Assembly (NCBI GenBank): GCA_021773295.1
Contig: JAJFKI010000027.1
Location: 59,885 to 123,884 of the forward strand
Reading direction: 5' to 3'
DNA from: Gammaproteobacteria bacterium
Lineage (GTDB): Bacteria > Pseudomonadota > Gammaproteobacteria > UBA1113
DNA: 64,000 bases
Shown piece by piece: positions 1,709-18,848 of this stretch (positions are counted from its first letter, which is position 1; each line of letters starts with the position of its first letter). The position numbers and the translations under genes were made by a program. The notes below the pieces were generated by a model. It was not told the DNA's origin and made no database searches. It saw only the letters and a list, made by a program, of their open reading frames with translations.

Positions 1709-3985
1709 ATGCTAAGTAAGGATTTAGAAGTTACCCTTAACTTGGCTTTTCAGGAAGCAAGGAACCAACGTCATGAATTTATGACGGTGGAGCATTTATT
1801 ATTAGCGTTGCTCGATAATACATCAGCAAGGAATGTTTTAAACAGTTGTAGTGTTAGCATCGATTTATTGCGTGATAAGTTATCACATTATATAGAAACA
1901 AAAACACCACGATTGCCTGAAAATGAAGAGTTAAGAGAAACTCAACCAACGTTAGGTTTCCGTCGTGTATTACAGCGCGCTGTTTTCCATGTTCAATCTG
2001 CTGGTCGCTCTGAAGTGAGTGGTGCAAATGTACTCACTGCAATTTTTAGTGAGCAAGGCAGCATGGCGGTGGAACTTTTAAAAGAAAATGGTGTCACCCG
2101 TATTGACGTGGTGAACTATATATCACATGGTGTTGCACGATCACAAGGTATGGAGTCAAGTCCAGAAAGCATGCCGCAATCACCTGTGCAGACTCAATCT
2201 GAAGAAGAGTTGGGTTTTGGCGCTACAGCGCCTACAGCGCTCGAGTCCTATACCATTAATCTTAATTTGAAAGCACTGACGGGCAATATTGATCCGGTGA
2301 TTGGCCGTGAATATGAAATCGAACGGGTCACGCAAGTGCTTTGCCGCAGACGTAAAAATAATCCTTTACTAGTTGGGGAAGCAGGCGTTGGTAAAACGGC
2401 CATTGCAGAAGGCTTAGCCAAACTCATTGTTGAAGATAAAGTGCCAGATTTATTGAAAAAATCTACCGTCTATTCCCTGGATTTAGGGAATTTATTAGCC
2501 GGTACTAAATACCGCGGTGATTTTGAAAAACGTTTTAAAGCCTTGATTCAAGAATTAGTGCAACAGCCCGGCGCTATTTTATTCATTGATGAAATTCACA
2601 CCATCATCGGGGCAGGGGCTGCTTCTGGTGGCGTCATGGATGCTTCTAATTTAATCAAGCCATTATTATCCAATGGTGAGTTGAAATGTATTGGTGCGAC
2701 GACCTTCCAAGAATACCGTACAATTTTTGAAAAAGATCGCGCTCTAGCCAGACGTTTCCAAAAAGTGGATATTAATGAGCCTACGATTGAAGAAACTGTG
2801 AAAATTCTCAAAGGCATTCGCAAAAAATTTGAAACCCATCATGGGGTTAAATATTCAGTCAAAAGCTTAGTTGCTGCGGCTGAATTATCGGCAAGGTTCA
2901 TTACTGATAGATTCCTGCCCGACAAAGCCATTGATATTGTGGATGAAGCCGGCGCTTTCCAATCGCTACAAATCTCATCTAAAAAGAAAAAACTTATTGG
3001 CACTCAGGAAATCGAAGAAATTGTGGCCAACATTGCCAGAATTCCATCGCAAACAGTATCTGCTGACGATAAAGAAATCTTGAAAGACTTAGTGCGTGAT
3101 TTAAAAATGCTGGTCTTTGGACAAGATGATGCCATCAAAGCCTTAGGCTCCGCCATTAAATTATCACGAGCCGGCCTAAGAGAGCCAGAGAAGCCCGTTG
3201 GCTGTTTCTTGTTTGCCGGACCTACGGGTGTTGGTAAAACCGAAGTAACGCGTCAATTGGCGAAATTAATGGGTATTGAGTTATTGCGTTTTGATATGTC
3301 CGAATACATGGAAAAACACTCAGTGTCACGATTGATTGGTGCGCCTCCAGGTTACGTGGGTTACGAGCAATCCGGTTTATTAACCGAGGCTGTCACAAAA
3401 ACGCCACACGCGGTATTATTACTCGATGAAATTGAAAAAGCCCATCAAGACATTTTCAATTTGCTACTACAAGTGATGGACCATGGTACATTGACCGACA
3501 ATAATGGTCGTAAAGCCGATTTCCGCCATGTTATCGTCGTCATGACCACCAATGCGGGCGCGCAATCCGTAAGCCGTAATCAAATTGGCTTTACCAATCA
3601 AGATAATTCTCAAGATAACTTAGAAGAAATTAATCGCTTCTTCTCACCAGAATTTCGCAATCGTTTAGATTCCATTATCAGCTTTGGCTTCTTGGACGAT
3701 AAAACCATCAGCAACATTGTTGATAAGTTCATCATGGAGCTAGAAGTTCAACTGGAACAAAAACACGTGAAACTACACGTACATGATAAGGTTCGAAATT
3801 GGTTAGCTATTAATGGCCATAACCCACAAATGGGTGCACGCCCCATGGCACGCCTCATCCAAGAACGGATCAAAAAACCACTGGCAGACGAATTACTCTT
3901 CGGCCAACTAAGCCACGGTGGCGCGGTGAAACTCATCATTGAAAATGATGAAATTGCCTTTGAAGTAGAAGAGTCTTGCACCTAA
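1709..3985 (+). CDS. clpA: ATP-dependent Clp protease ATP-binding subunit ClpA
   Basis: N-terminal [13 protein letters not shown]; two AAA+ modules ([16 protein letters not shown]); IGF ClpP-docking loop; 758 aa; GGAGG RBS. Confidence 0.97.
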
Positions 3986-14346: not shown

Positions 14347-14588
14347 GTCACCTCATTAAAAAAACACTGCTTTTTTTCATTACAGCTTACTCACTAAAGT
14401 AAACTCAGAGCGAGAGTATTGTCTGGCTCTGAGTCAAACATAGTTACCTATGTGATAGATAATTTTTACATATTTTGCCCTATCTTTAACTAGCATGTTA
14501 GCTGCTGCGTGCTAATTATAACTTTAATTTAAATCAAAGGGTTAAGATGGTCGGAGTATATCGTTTCATAAAAATATTTCATCCCCTA

Positions 14589-14617
14589 TTGAAAGTTCTC
14601 TAAAGGTTCTCTATGCT
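14589..14617 (+). promoter_or_regulatory. Sigma70 promoter of lexA with a GTTC-N7-GTTC SOS box in the spacer
   Basis: TTGAAA (14589-14594), 17 bp, TATGCT (14612-14617); GTTC-TCTAAAG-GTTC at 14595-14609. Confidence 0.8.
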
Positions 14618-14644
14618 TGAGGTGACAAGACAGGAGATAGGGCC

Positions 14645-15244
14645 ATGTTAACCGAGAGTGAGAAAAAGACGTATATGTTTATTAGTGATTACATCAAACA
14701 ACAGGGCATCGCGCCGACATTGCCGGAAATTGCTGCTGGTATTGGGATTAGCTCTAAGGGCGTCATACACCGCTATGTGCAGGCGCTAGCCGAGAAGGGG
14801 TGGATAACGTTGATTCCCAAGGTGCATCGTGGTATTAAGCTTACTAGCAAGGCCTTGAGCAAAGCCTTCAGCTTGCCTTTGCTGGGCACCATTGCCGCAG
14901 GGCAACCCATCGAAGCCATTCAAACCCATACGGAAATCGACTTAGCCAGTATTTTTGCTGGGGAAGGTCGCTATTTGCTGCGGGTGAGGGGGGATTCAAT
15001 GATTGATGAAGGCATTTATGATGGTGATATGATCATATGCCAGCAAACTACCCAAGTGCATAACAACGACATTGTCATTGCTTTAATCGATAAGCAAGAA
15101 GCGACGCTAAAACGCTTGCAGCGCAACATTGATGGCACGATAACCCTCATTCCAGCGAATCCTTCTTATAGCCCAATGACGTACCCGGCACATCGTGTCT
15201 CGGTGCAAGGGATTTTCATTGGCTTATTGCGGGTGCCAAGATGA
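14645..15244 (+). CDS. lexA: LexA repressor
   Basis: N-terminal wHTH; IAAG cleavage site; GDSM (Ser) and TLKR (Lys) dyad; AGGAG RBS. Confidence 0.95.
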   Translation: MLTESEKKTYMFISDYIKQQGIAPTLPEIAAGIGISSKGVIHRYVQALAEKGWITLIPKVHRGIKLTSKALSKAFSLPLLGTIAAGQPIEAIQTHTEIDLASIFAGEGRYLLRVRGDSMIDEGIYDGDMIICQQTTQVHNNDIVIALIDKQEATLKRLQRNIDGTITLIPANPSYSPMTYPAHRVSVQGIFIGLLRVPR

Positions 15245-16482
15245 AGCCTGAAGTAAACTATTGGCCTCGTGCCATTATTTTAGTGGACATGAATGCTTTC
15301 TTCGCTGCTATCGAGCAGCAGGATTACCCCGAGCTAAAAGGGCGCCCCATTGCTATCACTAACGGCGAAGAAGGCAGTTGTATTATTACCGCATCTTATG
15401 AAGCCAGAGCCTTTGGCATTAAAACGGGCATGCGCTTAAGAGAGGGTAAGCGTCTATGCCCGCAGTTATTACAAATTGCTTCGCGCCCTAAGCGCTATAC
15501 CGAAATTTCAAGAAACATTATGCAAGCCCTGGCAGACATTACACCGGATATGGAAGTGTTTTCAGTGGATGAAGCTTTTTTAGATGTGACTTATTGTCAA
15601 CGTTTGTATGGTTCACCAGAGTATATTGCACAACTGGTGAAACAAACCGTATTTGACGTCTCAGGTTTACATTGTTCCATTGGTGTTAGTGGTGATAAAA
15701 CTACGGCGAAGTTCGCTGCGAAACGTTTTAAGCCTAATGGTTTTTGTGTAATTGCGCCATGGGAAGCGAAACATGTGCTTGCCAAAGTACCCGTCACGGA
15801 ACTATGTGGCATTGCCTCGGGTATTGCAGCCTTTTTATCACAATACGGCGTACAGGTTTGTGGCGATATGGAAAAAGTCCCTATCAGCATTTTGGCAAAA
15901 CGCTTTGGTAATTTAGGGCGTCGCCTGTGGCACATGTGTCAAGGTAGCGATCCCGATCTCGTGCACACGAACATCGCCGCACCAAAATCCATGGGTCACA
16001 GTAAAATCATCCCCCCAGGCACCAAACAACAAGATATTATTTTATTTTACTTACGCTATCTTTCAGAAAAATTAGCTGCCCGCTTGCGCCGCCATGAGAT
16101 GCAAGCGCAAATTTTTTCTATTTGCACCAAGGGCGTAAACAAAGACAAATACGGCGGCAAACACCGCTTAACGCTGCCCACTGATGATGGCAAAATTATT
16201 TATGATCTCGGTAAACAATTAATCTTTGCCGAATGGCAAGGCCAAGGTTTAATACAAGTCAAAGTCAATGCCCTAGATCCAAAACCCACAAACATGCAAT
16301 TAGATTTACTAATAGAACACGATGAAAACAGTACCCTCAAAAATCAAACCATCGACGATATCAACAACCGTTACGGCTCCCTCACGGTGATGCCAGCAAC
16401 CTTGCTACAAAATAACCAATCCGTGACCAGTGTCATATCGCCTGCATGGAAACCAAAGGGCCATAGACAGACGATAGAGTGA
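15241..16482 (+). CDS. dinB: Y-family DNA polymerase (DinB/Pol IV-like, C-terminally extended)
   Basis: DMNAFF, SYEAR and SVDE catalytic motifs; QLDLL clamp motif; IDDINNRYG tail; ATGA overlap with lexA. Confidence 0.9.
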   Translation: MKPEVNYWPRAIILVDMNAFFAAIEQQDYPELKGRPIAITNGEEGSCIITASYEARAFGIKTGMRLREGKRLCPQLLQIASRPKRYTEISRNIMQALADITPDMEVFSVDEAFLDVTYCQRLYGSPEYIAQLVKQTVFDVSGLHCSIGVSGDKTTAKFAAKRFKPNGFCVIAPWEAKHVLAKVPVTELCGIASGIAAFLSQYGVQVCGDMEKVPISILAKRFGNLGRRLWHMCQGSDPDLVHTNIAAPKSMGHSKIIPPGTKQQDIILFYLRYLSEKLAARLRRHEMQAQIFSICTKGVNKDKYGGKHRLTLPTDDGKIIYDLGKQLIFAEWQGQGLIQVKVNALDPKPTNMQLDLLIEHDENSTLKNQTIDDINNRYGSLTVMPATLLQNNQSVTSVISPAWKPKGHRQTIE

Positions 16483-16548: not shown

Positions 16549-16959
16549 ATGTGTGGTGGTGTAATGTACTCATATGAAGATGACGTGCTAACGGTTTACT
16601 TTCCTAACCCAAAGGCTGTGTTGCCGGTATTAAAGCGCGATGGTGACATAGAGCTACTTCCTTGGGGCCGGCGGCAACAACAAGCAGGCTTTTTACCCAT
16701 GGGCGGTTGGGCACGATTAGAATCCATTCACCAAGGCAAGTGGGATAAATACTTTCCCACGCCGGTGAAAATTCCTTTATTAAAATTTATGGAAAAAGAC
16801 TTAGAAGGCACGAGTCATTGGTTTGACGTGATGTCTGGCCAATATGTGCAAGGACTTATCGCACACAATCAAACTGAACAGCGACTTTATGTGGTAACCA
16901 TTGCGCCAGATAAAGAGGATGCTATTTTTCATCGCTGGCCAAGGGTGGTTGCGAAATAA
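16549..16959 (+). CDS. Minimal SRAP/HMCES-like protein (putative abasic-site crosslinker)
   Basis: MCG N-terminus; PWG, WARLE, IPLLKFME and HRWP are collinear with the SRAP motifs WG, NARxE, IPxxGFYE and HxRMP; AGGAG RBS. Confidence 0.65.
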   Translation: MCGGVMYSYEDDVLTVYFPNPKAVLPVLKRDGDIELLPWGRRQQQAGFLPMGGWARLESIHQGKWDKYFPTPVKIPLLKFMEKDLEGTSHWFDVMSGQYVQGLIAHNQTEQRLYVVTIAPDKEDAIFHRWPRVVAK

Positions 16960-17822: not shown

Positions 17823-18848
17823 CTAGATGCCGGCAATTTGTCTGAAATTGCTGCCTTCATCGGCATCATTGATTTGATTTTTTATTTCTTCGAATAGTGT
17901 AAGCAGGGTGCTTTCAAGCGTGTTATCTTCATCTCTTATTTCTTGGCAAAGGGCTTCGATTTCAGTCAAGATTCCTTCTTTGGTTTTACTATGTTCAAGA
18001 AACACTTGTTGGAAGCGAGCAATTTGCGCTTCTCTATTTTCATTGGGCGAAAAAAAACCTAATTGTTTTAAAGAATAGGCTGTTGACGGGCGACGTTGTT
18101 GATAAAGTGTGAAGAAAGCTTGTCTCGCTTCTTTATTTCTTTGTATGGCTCTTTCCTGAGCCATTGTCATTAATTCATTCCGATCCATAAAATAGCGAGA
18201 ATCAATCCATAAAGGAATTTCAGTGTCTGGACAATAAGTATAGCCTGCTATTATCCTTGCATCTATTTCAGTGTAACCTTTAGTTTTTAGTTCATTATAT
18301 TTTTCTTCCATTTGTCTTGGTGAGCCAGTTGCTGCGCTTTCGGATAATAAGAGTAATTCTGCGAAACCAACACTTTTTCTAGATTTTCCTTTTCCTTTTT
18401 TATCTCGTTTTCTATTCATAACAGATTTTCTAATACTACTCATGCGAGGCAGCAACGTGTACATAGGAAGATGTAACTTAGTTTCAAGTTCACGAATGAC
18501 TTGCCGGTATTCGAGCCGCTTAGCTTTTAATAATTTAGTATCTGTGATGTTAATTTGAGAATAAATTACTGTGATTGTGTTTAAAATATTTTTTTGGTAG
18601 CTCATCACTTCATGATCACTTTCATATTGACTGCCGATAAACTCAAGTGTAGGAGGAATAGTTCCCAACATACTTTTTAAGGATTCATCATGTGCAAGCT
18701 TTTCAGTCACAAAGGATTTCAGCGTCTTATAAATTGCTGATAGCTGATGTTCAGTCAGCGATAATTTATCTTTGGTGGCACTAGAGCTACTGGCAGCACT
18801 ACTGCTGCTACTACTTGCAGATCTGCGATTTCCAGGTTCTCGGCTCAT
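17823..18848 (-). CDS. Orphan protein, candidate host-directed effector
   Basis: 341-aa ORF with AAGGA RBS; N-terminal poly-Ser, basic patch plus KSVGF, acidic helical C-terminus. Confidence 0.75.
   Translation of the reverse strand: MSREPGNRRSASSSSSSAASSSSATKDKLSLTEHQLSAIYKTLKSFVTEKLAHDESLKSMLGTIPPTLEFIGSQYESDHEVMSYQKNILNTITVIYSQINITDTKLLKAKRLEYRQVIRELETKLHLPMYTLLPRMSSIRKSVMNRKRDKKGKGKSRKSVGFAELLLLSESAATGSPRQMEEKYNELKTKGYTEIDARIIAGYTYCPDTEIPLWIDSRYFMDRNELMTMAQERAIQRNKEARQAFFTLYQQRRPSTAYSLKQLGFFSPNENREAQIARFQQVFLEHSKTKEGILTEIEALCQEIRDEDNTLESTLLTLFEEIKNQINDADEGSNFRQIAGI

Follow-up and report, generated by a model that had tools for sequence, protein, structure and literature searches.

LexA normally regulates itself through a site in its own promoter, and in the textbook and review view the Gammaproteobacteria use one SOS box, CTGT-N8-ACAG, whereas the GTTC direct repeat is alphaproteobacterial. 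Here we analysed a stretch of 64,000 nucleotides (hereafter the window) of contig JAJFKI010000027.1 from a Gammaproteobacteria bacterium (assembly GCA_021773295.1), in which the promoter of a lexA gene, followed by a dinB-like gene and a small gene named orf136, carries a tandem GTTCTC repeat. To judge by its sequence, this box is real and conserved and is very probably a functional LexA operator, a gammaproteobacterial variant of the alphaproteobacterial type that would serve a compact damage-tolerance operon. The consulted sections of PMC8565304 (2021) and PMC3323433 (2012) assign GTTC-N7-GTTC to the Alphaproteobacteria, where it is bound by the LexA of that class, and those of PMC7739468 (2020) place it there likewise. 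According to the same sections of PMC7739468, direct-repeat recognition by LexA evolved several times independently, with Verrucomicrobia, Patescibacteria and Acidobacterium capsulatum cited. The direct-repeat LexAs of Acidobacterium capsulatum (2006), Patescibacteria (2017) and Balneolaeota (2020) referred to there are a precedent outside the Alphaproteobacteria, but none of them is gammaproteobacterial. No description of a GTTC direct-repeat LexA box in Gammaproteobacteria was found in the literature searched (main texts, no supplements).

Small damage networks containing dinB are also described where classical LexA is missing, for example that of Francisella FddR, and Coxiella is said to be without LexA (consulted part of PMC13148647, 2026). 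As presented in that part, FddR resembles the system predicted here in being a self-cleaving S24 repressor whose targets are only its own gene and a few others, dinB among them, and in occurring in lineages that are related to intracellular bacteria and have lost the classical SOS regulon; it differs in that the repressor there is of phage type, whereas the window encodes a true LexA. The features of the lexA locus are as follows.

14589-14594, plus strand: -35 hexamer TTGAAA (sequence reading and promoter scan)
14595-14611, plus strand: putative LexA operator GTTCTCTAAAGGTTCTC, a GTTCTC direct repeat with an 11-base-pair (bp) period (sequence, matrix and conservation)
14612-14617, plus strand: -10 hexamer TATGCT, which shares two bases with the end of the 8-bp repeat unit (sequence and promoter scan)
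14632-14637, plus strand: ribosome-binding site AGGAGA, 7 nucleotides before the ATG (sequence reading)
14645-15244, plus strand: lexA, 199 amino acids (matches to TIGR00498, PF01726 and PF00717)
14645-14842, plus strand: winged-helix DNA-binding domain of LexA, about residues 1-66
14750-14788, plus strand: recognition helix of LexA, residues 36-48, SSKGVIHRYVQAL
14897-14902, plus strand: cleavage bond Ala85-Gly86 of LexA (alignment)
14996-14998, plus strand: catalytic Ser118 of LexA (alignment)
15110-15112, plus strand: catalytic Lys156 of LexA (alignment)

The promoter, TTGAAA-GTTCTCTAAAGGTTCTC-TATGCT, lies 28 bp before lexA, the ATG of which is at 14645. A first-pass annotation of this DNA had described GTTC-N7-GTTC as filling the spacer between the two hexamers, and re-reading of the coordinates gave the same 17-bp spacer, with GTTC at 14595-14598, TCTAAAG at 14599-14605 and GTTC at 14606-14609; the TTGAAA/TATGCT pair with this spacing was also called by the promoter scan, with 9 of 12 positions matching. 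The GTTC core of that description holds, but the repeat extends further, since its real unit is the 8-bp GTTCTCTA, present at 14595-14602 and 14606-14613 with AAG between the copies and an 11-bp period, and the half-site hexamer is GTTCTC. The reported lack of CTGT-N8-ACAG at lexA was also borne out: the exact motif does not occur in the whole 64-kb window, and its one-mismatch matches are at chance level (20 against 18.6 expected), the closest to lexA being at 14370-14385. An operator of the canonical gammaproteobacterial kind was considered for lexA and rejected, there being no such palindrome near the gene.

In describing the encoded protein we refer to the phylogenetic group of the window's LexA as clade A and to its sister group as clade B. 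The protein is, on sequence evidence, a complete LexA that is predicted to be cleavable. It matches TIGR00498 with 152.9 bits (cut-off 110.95), PF01726 with 37.9 bits and PF00717 with 102 bits, and both the N-terminal winged-helix domain and the C-terminal S24 peptidase domain are present. Ala85-Gly86, Ser118 and Lys156 are invariant across 11 clade members (alignment A1), and these residues match the AAG, SM and KR motifs of solved LexA chains in an alignment covering residues 2-196. This LexA is the sole LexA_DNA_bind match in the 2.99-Mb, 98%-complete assembly, and an Atlas search with it returned generic LexA clusters only.

The recognition helix, as the first-pass annotation had it, reads SSKGVIHRYVQAL. 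Across the helix region (residues 36-50) the window's LexA has identities of 58% to clade A, 51% to the alphaproteobacterial LexAs, 45% to clade B, 30% to the outgroup and 25% to canonical gammaproteobacterial LexAs, and the motif S-[KR]-[GS]-x-x-H-[RK] is common to clade A, clade B and the alphaproteobacterial proteins. Where the solved E. coli-type chain has Asn, Ala, Glu and Glu, at positions which we take to be base-contacting, the window's LexA has Gly39, Val40, His42 and Arg43; as aligned, the helix is altered at the right positions for a change of operator. In the C-terminal domain (residues 78-196) the identities are 54.4% to clade A, 48% to the alphaproteobacterial LexAs, 45.5% to clade B, 45.5% to the outgroup and 36% to canonical gammaproteobacterial LexAs. 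The LexA of the window belongs to the same family as the canonical beta- and gammaproteobacterial LexAs and shares their length and catalytic residues, but it differs from them in its helix region, in falling into a separate clade and in having a direct repeat rather than a palindrome as its putative operator.

The box is conserved among lexA loci. When one mismatch was tolerated and the 200 bp preceding lexA were searched, we found it in 15 of the 19 loci of clade A, the window included, and in 6 of the 9 loci of clade B. It was present in none of the 13 canonical gammaproteobacterial loci (the canonical relatives L013-L024 have CTGT-N8-ACAG boxes at lexA) and in none of 5,600 shuffled upstream regions of clades A and B. 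The Patescibacteria and Acidobacteriota lexA genes taken as outgroup (0/7) also lack it, in which they are unlike the window, and a GTTCTC-type site was found at 5 of 54 alphaproteobacterial lexA loci. The first-pass annotation had staked its proposal on the motif being present at orthologous promoters, and it is indeed present at 21 of the 28 loci of clades A and B together. Its placement is conserved as well: among the 14 clade A loci with a site on the coding strand, a TTG-type hexamer runs up to the box, or stops 1 bp short of it, in 13, and TATxxT directly follows the box in 11. Many orthologues have a second box, inverted, just before the ribosome-binding site; upstream of the window's lexA no such second box was found, the next best matrix score there being -5.9 bits. 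Two other arrangements were observed among the lexA upstream regions, namely GATCTC-N5-GATCTC in the promoter spacer of L009 (genome G025), and GTTCTC-N6-GAGAAC in L036, where the same half-site is inverted, giving a palindrome instead of a direct repeat.

Analysis of the whole genome showed that the exact 12-base form, GTTCTC-N5-GTTCTC, occurs once in 2,987,593 bases, namely in the lexA promoter. The bare GTTC-N7-GTTC is not enriched: base composition predicts about 80 copies, and 21 were counted on the two strands together. We also generated a matrix of 21 columns from 37 sites (at most two mismatches) that precede lexA in 22 other loci; the site of the window was excluded, and L035, L036, L040, L044 and L055 stayed outside the matrix because they have no site at this threshold. 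The box of the window is the top match of this matrix in the genome, with 25.8 bits, followed by a match of 17.0 bits inside an open reading frame (ORF). There are 49 matches of at least 10 bits in the genome, and random 430-bp windows gave a 99th percentile of 9.9 bits and a maximum of 12.3 bits.

The occurrence of the exact box was compared with that of this LexA type in 61 genomes, including the window's own (G000). Eleven of them have a clade A LexA (G000, G002, G005, G007, G008, G025, G030, G033, G038, G047 and G057), and exact boxes were found in 8 of these 11, with 13 sites distributed as follows: nine at lexA, two at an unlinked dinB (G002), one at a further promoter (G008) and one unexplained (G033). 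Among the other 50 genomes, four (G050, G052, G054 and G059) have exact boxes, five sites in total, none with promoter-like flanks; one of these four, G059, which is flagged as unpublished, is also the source of one of the 13 canonical rows. The control pattern, which is the box read backwards, gave 10 sites across all 61 genomes. These counts bear on the possibility that LexA does not bind the repeat, which would then be a conserved element of the promoter or be recognised by another regulator. The box does overlap the -10 hexamer, and part of its conservation could be promoter function. However, genomes with this LexA also carry the motif in the promoter of an unlinked dinB and in one more promoter, the frequency of the motif in the 50 genomes that lack this LexA is that of the control, its inverted copy is often located downstream of the -10, where a promoter element is not expected, and LexA as a rule regulates itself by binding within its own promoter. 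We consider this explanation very unlikely.

In our estimate the LexA encoded just downstream has, with a probability of about 0.8, its operator in the tandem GTTCTC repeat at 14595-14611, through which lexA, dinB and probably orf136 would be repressed. We take the box to be non-random because of its placement and its conservation, and the case rests on these two since the backwards-read control pattern is equally rare in the genome. Several points weigh against this interpretation. The control pattern also occurs once in the genome, so that the single occurrence of the box is not significant alone; at seven of the 28 loci of clades A and B no site appears even when one mismatch is tolerated, and several of these seven have degenerate or rearranged versions; the related genomes of the co-occurrence sample are not independent samples; and the window has a single box, against two in many orthologues. 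In addition, the claim of a minimal regulon relies on a matrix scan that is blind to weak or half sites, and the co-transcription of orf136 is deduced solely from a 66-bp gap, one other locus and the lack of a predicted terminator.

We infer LexA binding, repression, cleavage and co-transcription of the operon from these sequences, and the following mechanism may be proposed. A LexA dimer would place one winged-helix domain on each GTTCTC half-site, and the two half-sites would lie on the same face of the DNA helix because they are spaced 11 bp apart. Since the box fills the whole 17-bp spacer between the -35 and -10 hexamers, bound LexA would exclude RNA polymerase, and lexA, dinB and probably orf136 would be kept repressed. 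Upon DNA damage, RecA filaments would stimulate the self-cleavage of LexA at Ala85-Gly86 by means of Ser118 and Lys156, and the derepressed operon would supply a translesion polymerase and a small SRAP-like protein, until new LexA accumulates and shuts it off again. In the window's genome this circuit would control its own operon only, and not recA or the excision-repair genes. If it works in this way, the SOS regulons predicted with the E. coli motif in such genomes would be empty or wrong, and the damage response would here be reduced to a translesion polymerase and a miniature abasic-site-shielding-like protein from an unannotated family of at least 577 sequences. A short-linker LexA on a direct repeat would also offer a convenient case for studying how a symmetric dimer reads an asymmetric site.

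To place the window's LexA, we used a quick maximum-likelihood tree of 70 LexA rows, from which the UmuD-like partial matches L025-L031, the mis-called L073, the duplicate L002 and 32 of the 54 alphaproteobacterial loci were left out. The canonical gammaproteobacterial LexAs (support 100), the alphaproteobacterial LexAs (99) and clades A and B together (90) form three groups, the branching order of which is not settled. The window's LexA falls into an 8-row set with its family mates (support 95), on the side of clades A and B, and the 99-support branch excludes it from the alphaproteobacterial clade. Clade A contains Legionellales- and Coxiella-labelled metagenome-assembled genomes (MAGs), Thiotrichaceae, Granulosicoccaceae and Poriferihabitaceae, and was found in 7 of the 41 families sampled; clade B contains Ectothiorhodospiraceae and Sedimenticolaceae and was seen only among named MAGs. 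A database search with the window's LexA gave 781 cluster representatives at an expectation value (E) of at most 1e-40. Judging from the sites and the tree, clade A appears to be a large gammaproteobacterial LexA clade that uses a GTTCTC operator in place of CTGT-N8-ACAG, and clades A and B would form an intermediate group in which the change of LexA specificity between proteobacterial classes could be tested.

The likeness to the alphaproteobacterial system is extensive. The two have in common the GTTC core, the 11-bp period, the location in the spacer of the lexA promoter and often a second box in the opposite orientation, as well as the helix motif S-K-[SG]-x-I-H-R, the S24 peptidase domain and self-regulation, the last being predicted here. 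An exact alphaproteobacterial-type box was present within 250 bp upstream of lexA in 51 of 54 alphaproteobacterial loci. These sites, however, have the consensus TGTTC-N6-TGTTC (52 sites), whereas the half-site of the window is GTTCTC, and none of the 52 has GTTCTC in both halves; in 48 of them GAAC is on the coding strand, which is the orientation opposite to that of the window. The window's LexA is moreover only 33-39% identical to the alphaproteobacterial LexAs and is without their long linker of about 30 residues, its length being 199 amino acids against an alphaproteobacterial median of 233.

These differences, together with the tree, make it extremely unlikely that lexA and its operator were recently acquired from an alphaproteobacterium. 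Such an acquisition would explain the shared GTTC-N7-GTTC core and helix signature, and it would agree with the base composition of lexA, whose G+C content at third codon positions (GC3), 54%, stands at the 99.7th percentile among 1,828 ORFs of at least 190 amino acids in a genome whose long ORFs average 37%. It would also agree with the patchy distribution of this LexA type, which is present in 5 of 21 genomes of the family and in 0 of 10 of the largest genus, and it has a parallel in the transfer of an alphaproteobacterial lexA into Acidobacterium, named in a title cited in the consulted part of PMC7739468. Against it, the clade to which the window's LexA belongs consists entirely of gammaproteobacterial rows, and the database proteins most similar to this LexA bear the labels Gammaproteobacteria, Legionellales or Coxiella sp. 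MAG. Of the two origins offered by the first-pass annotation, a lineage variant common to many gammaproteobacterial families thus fits better than a recent alphaproteobacterial acquisition, which the tree disfavours, as do the lack of the linker and the half-site. Its reading of an alpha-type, autoregulated LexA is supported: the box and the protein alike indicate an alpha-like mode of working with repression of lexA by its own product, to judge from the conserved GTTC-N7-GTTC in the spacer and the helix identity (51% against 25%), although the protein is not a member of the alphaproteobacterial clade.

The GC3 of dinB is at the 85th percentile, and dinB and orf136 are only mildly elevated. 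The genes that flank the locus in the window (an M32 carboxypeptidase and a dienelactone hydrolase) were found beside lexA in none of the fetched loci, which is a weak test as the flanks of the relatives cover only 1.5 kb. The GC3, the patchy distribution and the unshared flanks argue for some lateral movement of lexA. Descent within the Gammaproteobacteria with losses, transfer among gammaproteobacteria, deep ancestry with the alphaproteobacterial LexAs and convergence are all compatible with the data as origins. In approximately unbiased (AU) tests, neither the tree that joins clades A and B to the alphaproteobacterial LexAs (p 0.47, log-likelihood 1.3 lower) nor the one that joins them to the canonical gammaproteobacterial LexAs (p 0.41) is rejected.

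Under convergence, this gammaproteobacterial clade and the Alphaproteobacteria would have come to their GTTC direct-repeat specificity separately, and not by common descent or ancient transfer. The repeated independent origin stated in the consulted part of PMC7739468 lends it plausibility, and so do the different half-site extension and promoter orientation, a tree that does not join clades A and B with the alphaproteobacterial LexAs, and the identity of the N-terminal domain overall, which is not higher to the alphaproteobacterial LexAs (31.6%) than to the canonical gammaproteobacterial ones (34.4%). We nevertheless hold it to be rather unlikely, given that the 4-bp core, the 11-bp period, the placement in the spacer and the helix motif would each need to arise twice, and that the tree joining clades A and B with the alphaproteobacterial LexAs is not rejected by the AU test. 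A broader scenario, which we put forward tentatively as a possibility, is that GTTC direct-repeat recognition is an old proteobacterial LexA mode kept in many deep gammaproteobacterial families, the E. coli-type CTGT-N8-ACAG being later and derived, and that in these lineages LexA was reduced to a damage-tolerance module complete in itself, which consists of lexA, dinB and a miniature SRAP-like gene and may be mobile between genomes.

Two genes follow lexA in the putative operon.

15241-16482, plus strand: dinB-like gene for a Y-family DNA polymerase of 413 amino acids (PF00817, PF11799 and PF21999)
16549-16959, plus strand: orf136, miniature SRAP (YedK)-like protein starting Met-Cys-Gly-Gly (fold match)

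The start of dinB overlaps the stop of lexA (ATGA). DNA polymerase IV models match its product below their curated cut-offs, and the catalytic motifs DMNAFF and SVDEAF are readable in the translation. No other copy was found in the genome with the window's dinB as query. The adjacency of lexA and dinB was observed in seven other loci (L032, L004, L008, L006, L035, L011 and L033). As for orf136, it begins 66 bp after dinB, it also follows dinB in L006 and no terminator is predicted, which makes it the probable third gene of the lexA-dinB operon.

The protein encoded by orf136 gave no Pfam match at E up to 10. It has at least 577 homologues of about 135-150 amino acids, which among the 120 matches listed show 59-70% identity and no Pfam domain, and its Cys2 is invariant in 24 sequences. 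The AlphaFold model has a predicted local distance difference test (pLDDT) score of 83.7, and among the PDB matches listed the best 16 (ranks 1-17) belong without exception to YedK, HMCES or other SRAP-like entries, with probabilities of 0.94-1.00 and template modelling (TM) scores of 0.49-0.63, but with E values of 0.003-0.2, weaker than the 0.001 line of the tool. In the Atlas the first named family was SRAP at 0.90, which we take as a lead only. With moderate confidence, based on the predicted model, orf136 may be regarded as a miniature SRAP-like protein. The SRAP family (PF02586) was named from SOS gene neighbourhoods, according to the consulted part of PMC3765255. Like SRAP, YedK and HMCES proteins, orf136 starts with Met-Cys, has a YedK-like predicted fold and is located beside a translesion polymerase in a putative LexA-controlled operon; unlike them, it has about 136 instead of about 210-230 amino acids and no Pfam match, and its structural E values reach only 0.003-0.2.

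The genome scan proposed by the first-pass annotation gave no further members of the expected regulon, since no box was found upstream of recA, uvrA, recN or ssb in the window's genome, where the best matrix score was at most 1.3 bits. recA is present elsewhere in this genome, and the recA promoters of five relatives scored at most 9.5 bits. This sets the locus apart from the alphaproteobacterial system, in which recA and uvrA are core SOS genes (consulted part of PMC3323433). All the other matrix matches in the genome have at most 17 bits and most are inside ORFs; a wider regulon was considered and rejected, as the intergenic secondary matches precede valS, rplV, pmbA or unannotated ORFs and no repair genes. 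In three clade B genomes, exact boxes, which alone were searched for, occur only as a pair at lexA, and lexA is not followed by dinB there. From the sequence scans we suggest, with moderate confidence, a minimal regulon of lexA, dinB and probably orf136.

Boxes away from lexA were also observed in other genomes. In G002, the dinB that is unlinked from lexA is preceded by two exact boxes (L156, G002:C4, 2518-2561), which have mirror-image spacers (CAAAT and ATTTG), so that the whole region forms a perfect long palindrome, as it does likewise at lexA in L008. In G008, a second promoter is near-identical to the lexA promoter of the window, with TTGAAA, an exact box and TATACT (L157, G008:C13, about 3014-3049, minus strand), and precedes a small ORF of about 57 codons with a good ribosome-binding site, which may encode a small LexA-controlled peptide. 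An opposed pair of boxes with one mismatch each is located about 230 bp before an ORF of 115 amino acids without a Pfam family in G005 (L155, G005:C16, 2480-2525). The exact box of G033 (L159, G033:C21, about 1021-2592) lies in about 1.5 kb without an ORF of at least 60 codons and without promoter-like flanks. In the window itself, the minus strand has at 17823-18848 an ORF of 341 amino acids whose N-terminus is rich in serine and which belongs to no family of Pfam or NCBIfam.

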